Sequence record: PQ356294.1
From: Escherichia phage Ec_YwIITB1
Strand: one strand, 5' to 3'
DNA: 64,000 nt
In this document: positions 735 to 60,502 of the stretch, one piece after another
Layout: every line of letters begins with the position of its first letter
Numbering within the stretch: position 1 is the first letter of the stretch
Notes under the pieces: model-generated
What the model saw: the letters and a program-made list of their open reading frames with translations, nothing else
Told to the model about the DNA's origin: nothing
Databases searched by the model: none
Program-made: the position numbers and the translations under genes

Positions 735-740
735 TTGATT

Positions 741-1391
741 ATGGGGCTTCGGCCCCTATTCTCGAGGAAACAAGTGATTATTTCTAAGTTTGTTAAAGTG
801 AAAATTGTACCATCAAATTTTAAACATTATCAATCAAAGGGTTATAAATTAACACCTCTTGGAGCGGTTAAACATGGATTTAGGTATTATGAAATTGATG
901 TTAAAGTTGAAGACATTAAAGGTAATACCGCGTATGTAAAATGCCGTTGCGATAAATGTGGAATTGAATATAACCAACGCATTGGAAGAAACACTGATAT
1001 TTGTCGTGATTGCCGTCATAAAGATAAAATGCGCAATAATTCATATGGTTCCGCGAATAAAGGAAAAACAGTAGAATGTATGCATGGCGTAAATCATCCA
1101 AGATGGAACCCAAATAAATCTGAAATGCGTGAATATATTTCATTGGTATATAAAGAAACTCGTAAGCATAAGAAAATTTGGTCAAAATGGCCAAATGCTG
1201 ATAAAATAGGAGTGTGCGGTACAAAAGGTGCTTACCAACTTGATCATAAGGTATCTATCAAATACGGTTTTGATAATTTAATTCCTGTTGAAATAATTGG
1301 CGGTATTAATAATTTAGAAATAATCACTTGGGAATCTAACCGAGAAAAATCAAAAAGAAATAGTGTAGATCTTTGGGATTTACTAGAATGA
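741..1391 (+). CDS. HNH-family (putative homing) endonuclease with N-terminal Cys-rich zinc-finger region; free-standing between genes 18 and 19
   Basis: ORF 735..1391; first ATG at 741; Cys cluster CRCDKCG...CRDCRH; C-terminal HNH-like motif QLDHKVSIKYGF...NNLEI..W.SN; position atypical for T4 backbone. Confidence 0.7.
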   Translation: MGLRPLFSRKQVIISKFVKVKIVPSNFKHYQSKGYKLTPLGAVKHGFRYYEIDVKVEDIKGNTAYVKCRCDKCGIEYNQRIGRNTDICRDCRHKDKMRNNSYGSANKGKTVECMHGVNHPRWNPNKSEMREYISLVYKETRKHKKIWSKWPNADKIGVCGTKGAYQLDHKVSIKYGFDNLIPVEIIGGINNLEIITWESNREKSKRNSVDLWDLLE

Positions 1392-5808: not shown

Positions 5809-7370
5809 ATGACTATCAAAACTAAAGCTGAACTTTTGAACAAATGGAAGCCATTACTGGAAGGTGAAGGTTTACCGGAAATTGCTAATAGCAAACAAGC
5901 GATTATCGCTAAAATCTTTGAAAACCAGGAAAAAGATTTCCAGACAGCTCCAGAGTACAAAGACGAAAAAATCGCCCAGGCGTTCGGTTCTTTCTTAACA
6001 GAAGCTGAAATCGGTGGTGACCACGGTTACAACGCTACTAACATTGCTGCTGGTCAGACTTCTGGCGCAGTAACTCAGATTGGCCCAGCTGTTATGGGTA
6101 TGGTACGTCGTGCTATTCCTAACCTGATTGCTTTCGATATTTGCGGTGTTCAGCCGATGAATAGCCCGACTGGCCAGGTATTTGCACTGCGTGCAGTATA
6201 TGGTAAAGACCCAATCGCTGCTGATGCTAAAGAAGCATTCCACCCAATGTATGGTCCAGATGCAATGTTCTCTGGTCAGGGTGCTGCTAAGAAATTCGCG
6301 CTAGCACACAAACTACTGTAAGTTGGAACCATTTACACCTATTTCTTCCAGGAAACTGGTACTGTATATCTGCAAGCTACCTCTAGTTAAAGCAAATTGA
6401 TACAAGTGCTTCTGACGCAGCTAAATTAGATGCTGAAATTAAGAAACAAATGGAAGCTGGCGTATTGGTAGAAATCGCTGAAGGTATGGCTACTTCTATC
6501 GCTGAACTTCAGGAAGGTTTCAACGGTTCTACCGATAACCCATGGAATGAAATGGGATTCCGTATCGATAAACAAGTTATCGAAGCTAAATCTCGTCAGC
6601 TGAAAGCTGCTTACTCTATCGAATTAGCACAAGACCTCCGCGCTGTTCACGGTATGGATGCTGATGCTGAACTGTCTGGTATTCTGGCTACCGAAATCAT
6701 GCTGGAAATCAACCGTGAAGTTGTTGATTGGATTAACTACTCAGCTCAGGTTGGTAAATCTGGTATGACCCTGACTCCGGGTTCTAAAGCTGGTGTATTT
6801 GACTTCCAGGATCCGATTGATATTCGCGGTGCTCGCTGGGCAGGTGAATCCTTTAAAGCTCTGTTGTTCCAGATTGACAAAGAAGCAGTTGAAATTGCTC
6901 GTCAGACCGGTCGTGGTGAAGGTAACTTCATTATCGCTTCCCGTAACGTAGTTAACGTTCTGGCTTCAGTTGATACTGGCATTTCTTATGCTGCACAGGG
7001 TCTGGCTACCGGCTTTAACACTGATACTACCAAGTCAGTATTTGCTGGTGTTCTGGGTGGTAAATACCGTGTATACATCGACCAGTATGCTAAACAGGAT
7101 TATTTCACTGTAGGTTATAAAGGTCCGAACGAAATGGATGCTGGTATTTACTACGCTCCATATGTAGCTCTGACTCCGCTGCGTGGTTCCGATCCGAAGA
7201 ACTTCCAACCGGTAATGGGATTCAAAACTCGTTACGGTATCGGTATCAACCCATTTGCAGAATCCGCTGCTCAGGCTCCGGCTTCTCGCATCCAAAGCGG
7301 TATGCCTTCTATTCTTAATAGCCTTGGTAAAAACGCTTACTTCCGCCGTGTATATGTTAAAGGTATCTAA
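5809..7370 (+). CDS. 23: Major capsid protein gp23; reading frame broken by several small indels between about 6290 and 6450 in the sequence as given (probable sequencing error)
   Basis: ORFs 5809..6321 and 6450..7370 match T4 gp23 N- and C-terminal parts; intervening residues (TQTTV, VGTIYTYFFQETGTVYLQ, KQIDTSASDAAKLDAEIKK) are found in shifted frames. Confidence 0.9.
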
Positions 7371-10356: not shown

Positions 10357-11786
10357 TTATGGATAGGTATAGATGATACCAGTTTCTAAAGCAGTTTTAT
10401 GAATGATGTATCCATTGCGTGATTCTTGAACATCAACTTCTGGATAGTCTTTCATCATCTTCTGAAGAGTGTAACGATGCAGGTAGTATTTACTGTCTGG
10501 ATCTTCAGTTTTCCAATCTTTACCTTCTTCGGTCATTTTTTGGATTTCATCCATAACCCACCAGCCGCACCAGATATAAGCCGAAGTACGATGTGGAAGA
10601 GGATGAACATAAGGCAATTCACCTTCTGGTTCCGGAGCAACTTTATCAGTTACCTGAACTTGGCCTGTTGCTTTAACTGTTTTACTATCATAGTCGGTTG
10701 CTGTAACGACAGCAGTAACTTCAATAGTTTGACTTCCAATAGATGAGGTGTCAACGGTGTATACATTAGTTGACCCTTCTACAGGAGAAGAATCTTTCTT
10801 CCATGAATAAGTAATTTGAGCTGCTTCAGGTGCTCCGTGACATTAGCCGTAAATGTAGCCGAAGCATCTTGCTGAACGTTAATAGAAGGAGGAGTCAATG
10901 TAACCTGTGGATTCATTGTCTTCTTATTAACTGTCAATGATACTTCATTAGAAGTAACTTCCTTTGCATCATAATTTTCAGCCGTTACTTGGGCTACACA
11001 CTTAACTGTTTTAGCTCCAACTGTGGTAGGAGTATAGTTAAATGTAGTAGTAGTTTCTCCATCGACCAGAGAACCGTCAACATACCACTGATACGTAGCA
11101 GACGCTCCTGGTGGCTGTGAAGCCAAGGTAGCAGTAAATTGAACTGGGGTTCCAATAACTCCTGCTGGAGGATTAGCAGGAGTTACGGCTAACGTAGTTG
11201 TCTGTGTTTTCTTATTAACAGTCAGTGACACTTCATTAGAAGTAACTTCCTTTGCATCATAATCTGTCGCGGTTACTTGAGCTACACACTTAATTGTTTT
11301 AACTCCGCTTGCGTCAGGAGTGTAATTGAATGTAGTGCCAGTTGCTTCGCCCACAGGAGAACCGTCAACGTGCCATTGATACGTAGCGTTTGCACTTGGT
11401 GGCTGTGAAGCTAAGGCAGCGGTAAATTCAATTGGAGTTCCAATCACTCCAGCATCAGGGCTACCAGGAGTTACAGCTAAAATAGTTGTTTGTGTCTTAT
11501 TTTGAACCGTGATAGTTGTCGTAGTTTCTGCTGTTTCAGGTTCAGGTTCAGATTCAGATTCTGGAACTGTATTTGTTGCAACGACTTTAATAGTCTTTTG
11601 ACCTGCAGGTCCTTTTAATACATAGCCAAAAGTTGCCGCTTCTCCATCTTGCGGAACATTATCTACACTCCAAGCATAGGTAATAGTTCCATCTCCAGTT
11701 TCACCACTGGGTGTAGCAGTAAACTGCTTGGTTTCATCAATAACTCCTGTTGGGGTTTTAGGAGTTATATCAACTGTAAAAGTCAT
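10357..11786 (-). pseudogene. hoc: Head outer capsid protein Hoc; extra tandem Ig-like domain and an apparent 1-nt deletion (about 10836) separating the Ig domains from the capsid-binding C-terminal domain
   Basis: ORF 10779..11786 (N-terminal Ig domains) and ORF 10357..10617 (conserved Hoc C-terminus LPYVHPLPHR...IIYTYP) in different frames; pseudogene or sequencing error. Confidence 0.8.
10917..11498 (-). repeat. Tandem direct duplication (2 x about 291 bp) encoding two near-identical Hoc Ig-like domains
   Basis: Protein repeat KTQTT.LAVTP...ATYQW.VDGS...KCVAQVTA..YDAKEVTSNEVSLTVNKKT occurs twice in tandem; DNA copies at about 11208-11498 and 10917-11207. Confidence 0.75.
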
Positions 11787-22962: not shown

Positions 22963-23016
22963 TCCTCATGTTATGTCAGTAAGACTATTATAACACAGCA
23001 CGAGGGACTTGTAAAC
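22963..23016 (-). repeat. 54-bp dispersed repeat (copy 1) comprising early promoter plus 5' leader
   Basis: TCCTCATGTTATGTCAGTAAGACTATTATAACACAGCACGAGGGACTTGTAAAC; second copy at 38653-38705. Confidence 0.7.
22987..23016 (-). promoter_or_regulatory. Early (sigma70-type) promoter: -35 GTTTAC, 18-nt spacer, -10 TATAAT; part of a 54-bp repeated promoter-leader element
   Basis: Minus strand reads GTTTACAAGTCCCTCGTGCTGTGTTATAAT; followed by leader with GAGG and ATG of ORF 22665..22955. Confidence 0.6.
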
Positions 23017-25073
23017 TACATCTTGAACTTTTTAGACATTCCGTTGATGTTAACCAAAGAAGCCAAGATTTGAGAAACTTCGTTTTCCTCTTCTTTTGAT
23101 TCTTCTACAAGGAATTGATTAAACCCAGCCATTGGACGAACTTCACCAGTTTCCATTAGATGATCGCCATCATATACCGATTCTTCTAATTGTTCAGAAG
23201 GAGGAACGATTGTGCCTTCAATTAGATACTTGTTATAAGCAGTTTCTTTCATCATGTACGTGCTCACTTTATTAATCTTCAGCAAAATTCCACGTGGTAG
23301 AATAACTTCAGCTTCTGATGGAAATCCTGATAAATGACCTGGAACGATAACTTTGATTCGCTCAGCCCCTTTAATTACCATACCTACGCTAGCTTCAGCA
23401 TCTTCATTAGCATATGCAGAATGACTACCCATATGCATTAAATCTTCAGCATCAACAGAACCTTCTCCTTCACCAGAAAATACTGCGCCGGAATCATCTA
23501 GAGCCATATAGTTTTTACCATGCTCACCGAAGATATTTGGTTTAAGCGATGTTGATACGAAGTTCTTGAAATAGAACATTTTATTTTCAATATTATGGCG
23601 TAAAGTTTTAAAAGTAACTTCTTGTCCACGATAAAGCGTAATTCCCGGAGGAAGAACTGAACCTTTGGCAAAGGCAGAATCCAGCGTCTCGATGTGTTTA
23701 ATAGCTCGTTCCATATATTCTTCACGGGTAGAATCTGGTTTACCCAAGAGGAACGAGTTCATTTCAACATATGAATCTGCACAATAATCTTCAATTACAA
23801 CAGACTCAGCCTGAGTTAATCCTTTTGGAGTTACTTCAGTGCTTGCGTATTCATATGCCTGAGCAGCAGATTCATTAATCAATTTATAAATGCCATTCAT
23901 GACAAATTGAATAATAGCTACCTTTTCGTCTGGCGTAGCTTTAGAACCTTTAACTAAATCATTGATAATTTTCTTAATAACATCAAAGCTATTAGAAATA
24001 TTAATGTCAGCGAGATCGCTCAAAATTTTATCGGTTTTATAATCAAAAAATTCTTTATTCTTTAAATATTCTTGAGAACCTTGATATGTTATATCGCTCT
24101 GCAGTCTGATAGACGGATCGCGTAAACGTGCATGGGCCAATGCAATATGATTTCGGAGGCTTTCTAGTTCATAATCGTTAGATTTAAAACGAGAAGCACT
24201 TCTCATACCACCGATAGCTCCTTTGCTGAAGTTGGAACCAATCTGAATAACGCCAGAGTTCATTGGTCCTTCTGCTTTATATACCGGAACTTTAGATTCA
24301 AACTCTTGATATTTCTTGGCGGCGAAGCTATCGCCCTGAAGTGAAGCATCGACAGTAGAATATTGAGCTTGCGCTGCCAATCGACGACTAATTTTAGTTT
24401 TCTGAATAACAGCTTGATCCGTGCGCTTATCATTTTCTAAAGCAATAGAAGCAGCAACAGCAACAGCTTTAGGAACAGCATTACCTGTTTTAACATCTAC
24501 ATAAACATCACCAACCTTTGATTCAACTTTTGTGAATAACTCAGTTGAAATAGGAGGTACACCTGGAATGTCTTCTAAATTGGCATTTTTACGGTAAACC
24601 ATAATATATGCATACTTTTTATCATAATCCCAGATTTCCTTTAAAAGAACATATCGACCTGCTCCTTTAGTACGTACTAAACGGTCAGCAATAACTTGCA
24701 TCTGACGAGCTGCGCCATTTGTTTTACTTTTTAGTACGCGGAATAGGCATGCATCAATTTTATACTGTTTCATTGTTTGAAGAGCAGTATCAAAAACCGC
24801 ATTAATGACACCAATTGGATTTCCACCCAAGTTTTTAAGTTTAACTAATGATAGTTTCTCATTAACACCTATCATTACGATATGCATCATTTTATCGCCT
24901 GGCTTAACGTTTTTATTTGTATCACCGCCAGAGGTGTATGTACAAAATCTAAATCCAGGAAGCACACTTTCTTCGCCGGCTTGAATAGCAAAAATTTGAG
25001 GTATTTTATGCTTAGGATTTAAGTTAACAACCGGCGCCGAAGCGCCGTCAAATAATTCTGTAATAAGTTCCAT
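23016..25073 (-). CDS. Alt-like mono-ADP-ribosyltransferase paralog (intact R-S-EXE motifs)
   Basis: 685-aa ORF; N-terminus MELITELFD...; motifs YRGQ, FVSTSLKPNIFG, SEAEVILPRG; paralogous to adjacent alt. Confidence 0.8.
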   Translation of the reverse strand: MELITELFDGASAPVVNLNPKHKIPQIFAIQAGEESVLPGFRFCTYTSGGDTNKNVKPGDKMMHIVMIGVNEKLSLVKLKNLGGNPIGVINAVFDTALQTMKQYKIDACLFRVLKSKTNGAARQMQVIADRLVRTKGAGRYVLLKEIWDYDKKYAYIMVYRKNANLEDIPGVPPISTELFTKVESKVGDVYVDVKTGNAVPKAVAVAASIALENDKRTDQAVIQKTKISRRLAAQAQYSTVDASLQGDSFAAKKYQEFESKVPVYKAEGPMNSGVIQIGSNFSKGAIGGMRSASRFKSNDYELESLRNHIALAHARLRDPSIRLQSDITYQGSQEYLKNKEFFDYKTDKILSDLADINISNSFDVIKKIINDLVKGSKATPDEKVAIIQFVMNGIYKLINESAAQAYEYASTEVTPKGLTQAESVVIEDYCADSYVEMNSFLLGKPDSTREEYMERAIKHIETLDSAFAKGSVLPPGITLYRGQEVTFKTLRHNIENKMFYFKNFVSTSLKPNIFGEHGKNYMALDDSGAVFSGEGEGSVDAEDLMHMGSHSAYANEDAEASVGMVIKGAERIKVIVPGHLSGFPSEAEVILPRGILLKINKVSTYMMKETAYNKYLIEGTIVPPSEQLEESVYDGDHLMETGEVRPMAGFNQFLVEESKEEENEVSQILASLVNINGMSKKFKM

Positions 25074-25076
25074 GAT

Positions 25077-27131
25077 TTATCCTTGAACGAACTTGTAAGG
25101 CATGTTTGTAATATCTATGCAAGACGCAATAATTCCAAGAGATGATTCTACTTTTTGTTTAACATTTGATGAAACAAATGATGCAAAGTCAACTCTGTCT
25201 TCTATTTCAATATCATCTGTCATTGCAACTACTTCACCAGTTTCCATTAGACGATCACCGTCATAAATTACTGATTCGGTGAGTTCTTCGGTAGTCATAA
25301 CTTCAGCTTGAATAAGCTTGTTGTTAGTTTTAGCTGTTCCATCATTGTAAGATGCGTCGGTTATTTTATTGACTTTGACCATCAATCCACGCGGCAAAAT
25401 GACTTCCATTTCATTTGAAGGCGCTAAACTTCCACCTGGTAAAACAACGTTGACTTTATCAGCCCCAGTAATAACCCATCCAATTCCAACTAAATTATCG
25501 CTAGAATTAACAAGTCCTTCATCGTTTTTATCGATAGAAATGTTTAGACGCTTTTCGTCTGGTAAAACACCCACAGCTGAATCAGTCATCCAAGTACCAA
25601 AAATGTTTGGATATAATGATGTTGATACAAAATTTCTAAAATAAAAAACTCGATTTTTTACCAATGCTTCATATATTGAAGGAGCAGTCATGCTTTGAGC
25701 ACGATAAACTGTAATGCCTTCTGGTATACGGTCACCATTTTCAAAGGCTGAATCTAAATTATTTATCGCAGATTCAATTTCTTTTTCACTCATTACCTCA
25801 TATCGTTCTGGATTATATAATCCCAAAAGAGCATTATTCATGTCTACATATCCTGAACCTACGTATTCACGAATTCCGCGTTTTTGTGCCGGTGTGTATT
25901 TAGATGAATCTTTATTTTCGACTATAGAATGCAATGACCATCCAACGGTAAGAGCATATCCACGTAATTCTCTTCGAATAATCTTTGTTTTTATTGCATT
26001 CCAAGAATTTTGCACTAACTCATTCGCAGCATCTTGATTTAAATGCGAATGCTTGTTAATATTTCTTTCTAACCAAGCACCTTTATATTTTTCTAAAGTA
26101 TCATCAACTATAGAAGCAATAGTTTCTAAAGTTTTTATTGAAGTAATAGATTCTTTTCGTAATCTTTCTAAAGCTTTATTTTTTATTTCTGCATTAACAT
26201 CAGATTCTTTATCTTCAGGAATTATAGAAGCTTCTCTGAATGCCATTCCAGCTGTAACACTATTAAGAGCATTCTCTAATGCAAATCCTGAAGTAGAAAT
26301 AACAGTTAATTCGTTAGCATCAGAAATTAAAGGCGCGTCAGCGGGTTTATTTAATTCTGCTGCTGAAGCCTCAAATTTTTGAAACATTGGTGTTTCAAAT
26401 CTAGAAGATTCTAATGATTGACTTTGTGCAATTGCTCTACGGGAAATTTTAACTTTAACGATTACAGCTTGGTCAGAACGTTTATCGTTTTCTTGCGCAA
26501 TAGATGCAGCAATGGCCTCATTTTTAGTTACTTGAGCTCCGGTATCTTTATTGATATAAACATCGCCGACTTTCGATTCAACTTTAGTAAAGAGCTCTGT
26601 ACTAATTTCAGGAACTCCTGGAATGTCTTCTAATGATACATTTTTGCGATGTATAAGAATATATGCATACTTTTTATCGTAATCCCAGAGTTCCTTAAGA
26701 AGGACGTATCTGCCACCTGAACGACTACGGATAAGTCTATCAGCAATAAGTTGAATTTGACGAGCTTGACCAGCAGTTTTAGACTTAAGAATACGGAGCA
26801 TGCAGGCATCAATTTTATACTGACGCATCGTTTGCATTGCAACAGTAAAAACTGAATTGATATAATTAATTGGGCTTGGACCGAGACCTTTTAATTTAGC
26901 GATTGAACCTTTAGCAGTTAATGTAAAAGGAACAATATGCATCATTTTATCGCCCATCTTTAAATCGCGATTAGTATCACCTCCAGATGTGTAGGTACAT
27001 AAACGAAAACCTGGTTGTTCAATTGCGTCATCAACATGAACTGAAAAAATTTGCGGTATTTTCTTCTTTGGATTTAAGTTTGTAATCGGAAGAGTAGTAT
27101 CTTCGTCAAATAATTCTGTAATGAGTTCCAT
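25077..27131 (-). CDS. alt: Alt ADP-ribosyltransferase (packaged, modifies host RNA polymerase)
   Basis: ORF 25077..27134; start at MELITELFDEDTT...; motifs YRAQ, FVSTSLYPNIFG, NEMEVILPRG; matches T4 Alt. Confidence 0.9.
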   Translation of the reverse strand: MELITELFDEDTTLPITNLNPKKKIPQIFSVHVDDAIEQPGFRLCTYTSGGDTNRDLKMGDKMMHIVPFTLTAKGSIAKLKGLGPSPINYINSVFTVAMQTMRQYKIDACMLRILKSKTAGQARQIQLIADRLIRSRSGGRYVLLKELWDYDKKYAYILIHRKNVSLEDIPGVPEISTELFTKVESKVGDVYINKDTGAQVTKNEAIAASIAQENDKRSDQAVIVKVKISRRAIAQSQSLESSRFETPMFQKFEASAAELNKPADAPLISDANELTVISTSGFALENALNSVTAGMAFREASIIPEDKESDVNAEIKNKALERLRKESITSIKTLETIASIVDDTLEKYKGAWLERNINKHSHLNQDAANELVQNSWNAIKTKIIRRELRGYALTVGWSLHSIVENKDSSKYTPAQKRGIREYVGSGYVDMNNALLGLYNPERYEVMSEKEIESAINNLDSAFENGDRIPEGITVYRAQSMTAPSIYEALVKNRVFYFRNFVSTSLYPNIFGTWMTDSAVGVLPDEKRLNISIDKNDEGLVNSSDNLVGIGWVITGADKVNVVLPGGSLAPSNEMEVILPRGLMVKVNKITDASYNDGTAKTNNKLIQAEVMTTEELTESVIYDGDRLMETGEVVAMTDDIEIEDRVDFASFVSSNVKQKVESSLGIIASCIDITNMPYKFVQG

Positions 27132-27183
27132 CATATCCTCTCTAGTGTTTATTCTATTTATAAAATTAAAGGCCCGAAGGCCT

Positions 27184-40323: not shown

Positions 40324-41498
40324 TTAAAAATATTTTTTAAAACTCATCATAACTTTATCATCAACATCATTATCAATCTGTGCTACAAGATAAGATGACA
40401 GTTCTACTTCTTGCGGCGCGGATTGAACATTATCAGAATTAAGATATTCACGAATCCAAGGATACGGGTGTTTAACCGGAGCATCGGTAATTGGGCATGG
40501 AAGACCACACTGTTTCATACGAGATACAGTTAAGTAATCAATAAAGTTCCACATGCTATTTGTATTTAATCCAGGAACATCGCCATCTTTAAATAAATGA
40601 ACTGCCCAGTCTTTTTCTTGGCGGTTAACTTCCATGAAAATATCAACTGCTTCTTGTTCACACTCTTGGGCGATTTTAACCCATTCATCACCATCAGTGC
40701 CAAGTTGAAGTTGACGAATAATATATTGGGTGCCTTTAAGGTGAAGCTGTTCATCACGTGCAATGAACTTCATAATCTTGGCATTACCTTCCATGATTTC
40801 CATGTTTTTATGGAAGTTAAAGGTACATGCGAAAGATACGTAAAAACGAATAGCTTCCAGTGCGTTGATTACATGCAGACAAAGGTAAAGAGAACGCATT
40901 AGTTCACGTTTCCAATACATTTCATGCTCTATGGCATCTTTAATATCATCTTCGTCTGCGTTAATTTCTTTTTGGTACTCAATATCAGCTTTAGCATTCT
41001 GCCACGAGTTTTCTCAATAACATCATCATAGTAACGACCAATAGATTCAGCACGTTTCATGATAGCTTTATCTAATACAATCTCATCAAATACTTTTGAC
41101 GGATCAGTATAAAGATTCCGCATGATATGAGTGTATGAACGACTGTGAATAGTTTCGCTAAAAGTCCATGTAGCAACCCATGTATCAAGGCTTGGGTCTG
41201 AAATTAACGACATAAGTACAGCAGACGGTGCACGACCCTGAATGCTATCCAAAAGTGATTGATACTTCAGGTTATTAGTAAAAATATCTTGCTGATACTG
41301 AGGAAGCTTGTTAAATTGTGCAGCATCCATCATCAAGTTTACTTCTTCAGGACGCCAGAAAAATGACAACTGCTTTTCGGTTAAATCTTCAAAAACTTTA
41401 TGGCGTTGAATATCATAACGCGCAATACCAAGACCTGAACCGAAGAACATAGGTTCTTTTAAAACATCAACTGGATTTGTATTAAAAACTGTGCTCAT
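40324..41498 (-). pseudogene. nrdB: Ribonucleotide reductase beta subunit NrdB, intron-less, with apparent net -1 frameshift near 40994 in the sequence as given
   Basis: ORFs 40929..41498 (N-terminal 165 aa good, then out-of-frame tail) and 40324..40920 (C-terminal part) together span about 388 codons; pseudogene or sequencing error. Confidence 0.85.
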
Positions 41499-44371: not shown

Positions 44372-45231
44372 TTACACCGCCATCTTTCCTTTAATTGGCG
44401 GGTGAGATACATAGTTGTTAAGAACAAAATTATGCGGCTTTGCGAATTGACTCAACCAAAATACCTGCGATTCTGTGTCCCATTCATCAAATTCATCTGG
44501 AAATTTTAATTGTAATTCGCATAAATCCATAGGTTCACGACGCAAAATTTCTTTACATTGTTCTACGTGATTCATATAGATATGAGTATTACCACCAGAA
44601 AATATCAAATCTCCTGGAATAAGTTTACACATCTTAGCTACAATATGAACTAACGTAGCATATGATGCAATATTAAATGGAAGACCGAGGAAAACATCTA
44701 CCGAACGTTGATACCACTGCAAATCCAAATAGCCATTACGCACATTAAATTGATAGAACATATGACAAGGTGGTAATGCCATTTGCTTGAGTTCAGCTGG
44801 ATTCCATGCTGAAACAATTTGACGTCTATCATTTGGCAGTTTTTTAATACGATCAACAACTTCTATAATTTGGTCTACACCACCAAAATCGCGCCACTGT
44901 TTTCCATAAATTGGACCAAGTTCACCACTATGGTATCCTAAATCTTTTGCTTGATTTTCGTAATTTTCATCCCAGACTGTTTTGCCTTGAATTAATGAAT
45001 CATGTTGAATTAATCGCAAATCATTGACATTTGTGCTTCCCGATAAAAACCATATTAGCTCAGCAATGCAAGCTTTCCAGGCAAGCTTCTTAGTCGTTAC
45101 TGCAGGAAAACCTTTAGTTAAATCCCAGCGTAATTTAGTACCGAACAAAGCAATTGTTCCTGTGCCTGTTCGGTCATCGGTTTCGTAACCATTTTCCAGG
45201 ATATCTTTAATTAAAAATTGGTATTGTTTCA

Positions 45232-45232
<1 letters not shown>
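44372..45232 (-). CDS. td: Thymidylate synthase (intron-less)
   Basis: ORF 44372..45244; start at MKQYQF...; continuous ORF with no intervening sequence; matches T4 Td apart from a variable C-terminal segment. Confidence 0.95.
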
Positions 45233-46257
<1,025 letters not shown>

Positions 46258-46565: not shown

Positions 46566-46950
46566 TACTTTTTGAAAGTTTTTCGCAAAAGTTCAATGAT
46601 TTCATCTACATTGTTTTCATCAACAATGCAGTGAATTTTTGTTACGCCAGAAACCTTGTCTTCGACTTCATCTTCTTCGGAAGTCGGTTCTTTATACTCA
46701 CGAAAACAATGAAATTCGTCTTCGCAAATTTCTAAAAGTCTATCTTTGAGGTAAAAATGCTTTCCGTTAGCGCACAAATGATTTCGGTTACATAATCAAA
46801 GCCATCTAAATTTGATATTGATTTAACTTCAAACCAACCACCATTTTCTTGAATGATGCCGACCATATTAGTATTTGATGAACTAATATCAATGAAAGAT
46901 TTAATACGATGTATCAATAAGTCTTGGAACAAGTTCATACTTTTTGCCAA
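46565..46950 (-). CDS. Hypothetical protein; two overlapping ORFs (46732..46950 and 46565..46777) that may be one gene split by a frameshift
   Basis: Adjacent ORFs overlap by 46 nt in different frames; downstream ORF has no ATG start. Confidence 0.4.
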
Positions 46951-47001
46951 TATACATTACGTTTTCCTCATTTTAACGGGGCTGTAATAGCCCTTTGATA
47001 A

Positions 47002-56383: not shown

Positions 56384-60502
<4,119 letters not shown>

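Follow-up and report, generated by a model that had tools for sequence, protein, structure and literature searches.

An interrupted major capsid gene 23 in a T4-like phage sequence is probably a sequence error

The major capsid protein gp23 of T4-type phages is an essential shell protein whose I domain interlocks the capsomer and neighbouring subunits, and residues 132-160 form the I-domain linker (PMC9546572). In T4, gp23 (NP_049787.1; PF07068) is encoded by one ORF of 521 codons located between genes 22 and 24. The genes closest overall to the one analysed here are those of Yersinia phage PYps32T (QNJ50002.1) and Shigella phage Sf21 (AUV63722.1), and both are uninterrupted. PYps32T gene 23 is annotated as a single CDS of 1566 nt and is 97.4% identical over 100% of the query in megablast; the nucleotide identity of Sf21 is 97.1%. 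A gene 23 annotated as two CDS is found in the T4-like genome of Shigella phage sb1 (PQ666539.1). Messages that cannot be read in one frame are also known from the bypass in T4 gene 60 and from phage -1 frameshifting.

The window analysed here is the whole 64-kb stretch of DNA. Searches with 92 T4 proteins (tblastn) indicated that it belongs to a Tequatrovirus (T4-like) genome and extends from gene 18 to motA. Most of its products are 95-100% identical to their T4 counterparts, and the head genes 20-67-68-21-22-23-24 are in the usual order. The nearest public genomes in INPHARED share ~97% identity with the first 24 kb. The sequence itself is absent from INPHARED, and searches of E. coli RefSeq and PLSDB gave no match. 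Like its T4 counterpart, gene 23 is located between genes 22 and 24.

Gene 23 is present in the window, yet it is not intact as written. The T4 gp23 query produced two HSPs at this locus, in frames 1 and 3 (tblastn). Two ORFs match the Pfam family Gp23 (PF07068; gathering cut-off 24.4), the N-terminal one with a bit score of 68.7 over profile positions 1-62 and the C-terminal one with 327.3 over positions 109-375. The profile positions absent from both matches correspond to the interrupted stretch. In place of the single ORF of ~521 codons found in T4, the gene has stops at 6319-6321 and 6388-6390 and three frame changes, and it is 4 nt shorter. No second copy of gene 23 was found in the window by tblastn, where the only other match to gp23 is gene 24, at 25% identity. 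Since gp23 is essential, a plaque-forming phage cannot carry gene 23 as written. The coordinates of the interruption, and of the breaks in four other genes discussed below, are listed in Table 1.

Table 1. Gene 23, its parts, and breaks in other genes of the window
Feature	Position	Strand	Description
Gene 23, major capsid protein, whole	5809-7370	+	1562 nt, versus 1566 nt in relatives
N-terminal ORF, 170 aa	5809-6321	+	gp23 residues 1-163, then out-of-frame tail ALAHKLL and TAA
First frame change, 1 to 0	6298-6300	+	at least 1 nt missing; from alignments and repair
Block A, ASTQTTV, frame 0	6300-6320	+	allele of T4 type; 19 of 21 nt agree with T4 codons 168-174
Second frame change, back to 1	6319-6321	+	surplus A at 6321 makes the frame-1 TAA
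Block B, VGTIYTYFFQETGTVYLQATS, frame 1	6322-6384	+	PYps32T-type allele, 56/63 nt, codons 174-194
Third frame change	6385-6391	+	two surplus bases, TCT-A-GTT-AAA-G versus GTT AAG in relatives
Block C, KQIDTSASDAAKLD... to natural stop, frame 0	6390-7370	+	from three-frame translation, Pfam and alignment
hoc break	10829-10841	-	1-nt deletion at the boundary of two allele types; frames -3 and -2
nrdB break	40999-41012	-	4-nt deletion (ACTCG----TGG) versus intact same-allele genes of sb1 and IsaacDaniel
frd break	45681-45691	-	4-nt deletion, ATT[TCTG]GTT
frd.2 breaks	46764-46917	-	~140-nt T4-type block inside KNP5-type gene, out of register at both ends

The gene is read in frame 1 (position mod 3 = 1) from ATG 5809 through 6299. 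Its N-terminal 150 residues are nearly unchanged from T4, including those around the Glu65/Ala66 maturation site. The N-terminal ORF ends at TAA 6319-6321, as the original prediction had stated and as both the ORF list and the sequence confirm. At the first frame change, the sequence TTCGC/GCTAGC is found where relatives have TTC GCT GCT... or TTC CCA GCT CTG GCT GCT AGC. Block A follows. It is the T4 allele, and both of its differences from T4 are synonymous in T4's frame. Block B shares its frame with the N-terminal ORF, and the in-frame TAA stands between them. Its codon differences from PYps32T are two synonymous and two non-synonymous ones. The surplus bases at the third frame change create two stops, TAG in frame 0 (6384-6386) and TAA in frame 1 (6388-6390). 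Downstream of them, block C reads KQIDTSASDAAKLDAEIKKQMEAG... from 6390; 58 of the 60 nt at 6390-6449 are identical to PYps32T, and both differences are synonymous. The agreement of the three blocks with known alleles far exceeds what chance would give. Block A and the region from KQIDTSAS to the end of the gene share one frame (position mod 3 = 0).

Two details of the original prediction are refined by this reading. It had the C-terminal ORF restart at 6450, and an ORF at 6450-7370 does exist, but ATG 6450 (Met216 in gp23) is just the first ATG of its frame, and homologous reading starts already at 6387-6390. It had also placed the intervening residues in shifted frames. The three peptides it quoted are all present in the three-frame translation of 6250-6480, with the added detail that the block VGTIY...QATS is in the frame of the N-terminal ORF.

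The three frame changes are packed into ~95 bp (6298-6391), in agreement with the earlier estimate of at least three small indels. Alignments to relatives indicated a net change of -4 nt, composed of -6 around 6298-6321 and +2 around 6385-6391. The cheapest repair takes four 1-nt edits, namely insertion of T after 6299 and removal of A6321, A6385 and one A of 6389-6391. The repaired gene is an ORF of 519 codons. Over its full length, its product shares 97.9% identity with gp23 of PYps32T and 96.6% with that of T4. Described against known alleles, the lesions are alternatively -10, +4 and +2. In the first zone, a PYps32T-type start (TTCGC) joins the T4-type block 10 nt out of register, with the allele switch at the short shared string GC, and the T4-type block joins PYps32T-type sequence downstream 4 nt out of register. 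In the variable stretch, PYps32T and Sf21 share the versions VGTIYT.FFQETGTVYLQAT and KQIDTSASDAAKLD with the window. They differ from it in having AALKASDTLE where the window shows a shortened and frame-shifted T4-type ASTQTTV.

The gene varies most in the interrupted codons, ~163-197 in T4 numbering. T4, PYps32T, ZCEC15, sb1, IsaacDaniel and the IMG/VR relatives have differing versions of this stretch, all of them in frame, and all eight Tequatrovirus alleles that we translated have equal length across it. Because the stretch directly follows the I-domain linker, it probably belongs to the surface insertion domain of gp23, where it would form the start.

Among the public collections searched, the lesions are private to this sequence. 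In INPHARED, 781 records cover at least 80% of gene 23. The best 40 matches all span 1566 nt, and the gene is a single feature in each of the 37 annotated ones among these 40, named major capsid or head protein in 35. The interrupted stretch is read through in frame in more than 780 INPHARED records and in 53 of 53 IMG/VR loci. The broken arrangement is absent from all relatives examined in INPHARED and IMG/VR, and exact searches of IMG/VR, JGI metagenomes and GTDB genomes did not find the junction strings. The 170-aa N-terminal ORF has no record as a called protein in an exact-protein look-up. A degenerate DNA pattern search for the repaired allele found no intact natural copy; its best IMG/VR relatives are 91% identical, and none has the same combination of versions. 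The 94-aa repaired segment of gp23 had two word-sharing candidates and no match in a collection of 5.8 billion proteins. For so common a protein this is a surprisingly low number, which the short query and the word index may explain.

The shifted blocks differ from known alleles almost only at synonymous positions. This indicates that they have not drifted since the breaks arose, and that the lesions are either very recent or not real. The private and undecayed lesions, the lack of recoding signals and the similar breaks in four other genes all favour the sequencing or assembly error that the original prediction had proposed, or at most very recent lesions, over a functional arrangement. From this pattern we infer that the breaks are artefacts. 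Very probably, the deposited or assembled sequence is in error here, and the interruption is not a property of a working phage. The capsid gene of the phage is almost certainly normal.

The true gene 23 would be in frame and would differ in length by 2 or 4 nt, for example as ...KKFAASTQTTVVGTIYTYFFQETGTVYLQATSVKQIDTSAS... or as a 521-codon variant. The phage, or a sequenced mix of closely related T-even phages, would thus have an ordinary gene 23 of ~519-521 codons, from which a few bases would have been lost or gained in the consensus within the most variable stretch.

If the sequence is instead correct, full-length gp23 might be produced by translational recoding. Ribosomes would have to move to the -1 frame near 6298, by +1 at 6320-6321 and by -1/+2 at 6385-6390, or alternatively to read through TAA 6319-6321 and shift once. 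The homologous residues are in the right order across the alternative frames, and the gene 60 bypass is a famous recoding event in T4. The features expected of a programmed -1 ribosomal frameshift, however, are lacking: a slippery heptamer, a downstream stimulatory structure and conservation in relatives. No X XXY YYZ heptamer accompanies any of the three sites, and direct reading of 6290-6300 and 6380-6392 found none. The MFE of the 141-nt stretch is -29.4 kcal/mol, where shuffled sequences average -28.3 (z = -0.33), and its fold is equalled or bettered in 73 of the 200 shuffles. No relative has the arrangement, and four other genes are broken similarly. Three inefficient recoding events in series could not supply the ~930 copies of gp23 that each head needs. 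Taken together, we regard recoding as extremely improbable.

Gene 23 in the window resembles T4 gene 60 and the known -1 frameshifting genes in that its message is unreadable in one frame. In contrast to a gene 60-type bypass, it has no matched take-off and landing codons round a non-coding gap. The stretch after TAA 6319-6321 is not such a gap, because it encodes the conserved VGTIYTYFFQETGTVYLQ, which is identical to PYps32T at 56 of 63 nt. If the exact sequence did belong to a viable phage that makes gp23 through three frame changes, or through read-through and one frame change, recoding within codons 163-197 would be denser than any known from a highly expressed structural gene. That combination is hardly credible.

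A shell built from two polypeptides was also considered, one of residues 1-170 and the other a fragment starting at Met216 (ATG 6450). Both ORFs are long, and both match Pfam Gp23. In this arrangement the I domain, which interlocks capsomer subunits (PMC9546572), would be missing its first ~45 residues. That other frames still code for these residues, with no decay, speaks against a split gene as a settled state. Upstream of ATG 6450, the sequence GAAATTAAGAAACAAATG read by eye contains no Shine-Dalgarno-like motif, and no relative is split at this place. A two-piece capsid protein is accordingly a most implausible reading.

Gene 23 is not the only broken gene in the window. In the tblastn searches with 92 T4 proteins, frame splits were found only in gene 23, hoc, frd and frd.2, besides the normal uvsW/uvsW.1. 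The ORF list indicated that nrdB is split too. We rejected the uvsW split as an error, as the uvsW/uvsW.1 arrangement is usual and is annotated in ZCEC15, sb1 and IsaacDaniel. Gene 67 was rejected as a broken gene; its short tblastn match is a low-complexity effect, and its 79-aa ORF is intact.

In hoc, the deletion coincides with the switch from a Killian-like to a ZCEC15-like allele. The hoc gene (10360-11786, minus strand) is otherwise of the long form known from phage Killian, which contains an additional ~280-nt repeat that T4 and ZCEC15 lack. The nrdB gene measures 1175 nt, compared to 1179 nt in intact genes. It is located at 40324-41498 on the minus strand and is intronless here, unlike in T4. 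In frd, which encodes dihydrofolate reductase (45438-46012, minus strand), a 40-nt window round the deletion equals KNP5 and ime09 at every aligned base. The frd.2 gene (46568-46957, minus strand) is a chimera of three parts, KNP5-type, T4-type and KNP5/sb1-type. The T4-type block is out of frame, whereas the two end parts are mutually in frame. Its joins add 13 nt at 46898-46917 and 2 nt at 46764-46779, and are located at the shared strings ACAT (4 nt) and TG (2 nt). The allele types of frd.2 share ~15 nt of out-of-register similarity.

The breaks cluster in variable segments. We defined a variable site as a 40-nt window in which at least one of four full-length relatives is at most 85% identical. 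Such sites make up 20.5% of positions 1-48000, and all five broken loci fall in them. The chance that five independent loci would all do so is ~0.2^5, roughly 4e-4. The breaks are thus restricted to hypervariable mosaic sites, and some of them join allele types out of register, which suggests that related T-even genomes were mixed, either in the sample or during assembly. The combinations of alleles in these patches would then be untrustworthy too.

The same consensus fault that we propose for gene 23 probably acted at these four further variable or mosaic spots. It could have arisen when a consensus was built or polished over heterogeneous or badly aligned reads, with the heterogeneity stemming from a mixed population or from divergence from the guide sequence used. 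Since several breaks are joins of two known allele types a few bases out of register, trouble in consensus building or polishing is the most likely technical route. Random base-calling noise fits less well.

Two observations stand as counterpoints to an artefact. The indels are mostly of non-homopolymer type, and some are multi-base (-4, -4 and +13), which is unusual for a simple base-calling error. In addition, the ~85 other T4 homologues tested in the window are uninterrupted, so the sequence is not generally poor. Plain homopolymer error was rejected as the cause. The earlier suggestion to check homopolymer lengths holds for two events of gene 23, which lie in A-runs; the breaks outside gene 23 (-4, -4, +13, +2 and -1) and the remaining events are of another kind. 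Fill-in from a known reference genome was likewise rejected for gene 23, on the mismatch of block A to the databases: the 20-mer GCTAGCACACAAACTACTGT (6300-6319) has no exact match in IMG/VR, and the best INPHARED matches to the 56-nt stretch 6290-6345 are partial, covering 22-24 nt at 91-96% identity (blastn). In the literature on sequencing errors in glucosyl-hydroxymethylcytosine DNA, we found nothing specific to T4 assemblies.

The main competitor of an artefact is that the sequence is correct and the genome defective. Out-of-register (homeologous) recombination between co-infecting T-even phages, together with small deletions, would have broken the five genes, and a relative would supply gp23. 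Such a genome would persist, or be merely sampled, in a mixed lysate or an environmental population. The junctions of frd.2 and of the first zone of gene 23 are consistent with this, as they switch natural allele types at ACAT, TG and GC, and the out-of-register similarity in frd.2 could misalign real heteroduplexes. The clustering of the breaks in mosaic segments also fits, and the undecayed shifted blocks are consistent with very recent events. The hoc, nrdB, frd and frd.2 genes, four of the five, are dispensable in the laboratory according to T4 genetics, so their breaks could be genuine mutations. A gene 23 null, however, cannot dominate a population without a helper, and one recombination event is unlikely to have shifted the frame of an essential gene three separate times in 95 bp. 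The junctions are found in no other public sequence in INPHARED, IMG/VR, JGI metagenomes or GTDB genomes, and a consensus over a mixed read set predicts identical signatures. On balance, a defective genome is unlikely, though clearly a better candidate than recoding or a two-piece protein. If it were true, the junctions would be real scars of illegitimate recombination in a complemented defective genome.

The sb1 sequence provides a precedent in GenBank for such breaks in deposited T-even sequences. In addition to gene 23, its gp27, gp48, gp34, gp35, rnlA and others are annotated as fragments, and this record suggests many frame errors in the deposited genome. The window's nrdB allele is present in sb1, where it is intact. 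The two sequences differ in that gene 23 of sb1 is split elsewhere and many more of its genes are broken, compared to five in the window, all in variable segments.

With a sequence error as the preferred explanation, the biological significance of the interruption is small, and its significance for data quality is real. An annotation of the sequence in its present form would list gene 23, hoc, nrdB, frd and frd.2 as pseudogenes or fragments. The marker region of gene 23 used for T4-type phylogeny would also be corrupted.

Several other features of the window were observed. No tblastn match was found in it to the T4 homing endonuclease genes segD, segE, segG, mobE and I-TevI. The td gene (44372-45244) appears as a single intronless ORF. 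Two full-length alt-like genes of 685 aa each are arranged in tandem on the minus strand, at 23016-25073 and 25077-27134. Their identities to T4 Alt are 94% and 41%, and T4 has only remnants (alt.-1 and alt.-2) at the position of the second. Genes 18 and 19 flank an ORF of 218 aa (735-1391, plus strand) that T4 lacks; a hypothetical protein is annotated at this position in ZCEC15, sb1 and IsaacDaniel. The distal tail-fibre genes (56470-60502, plus strand) are not of the T4 type. T4 gp38 has no tblastn match in the window, and gp37 is 33% identical to T4 gp37. The ORF at 59717-60502 on the plus strand occupies the position of a gene annotated as a tail fibre adhesin in IsaacDaniel.
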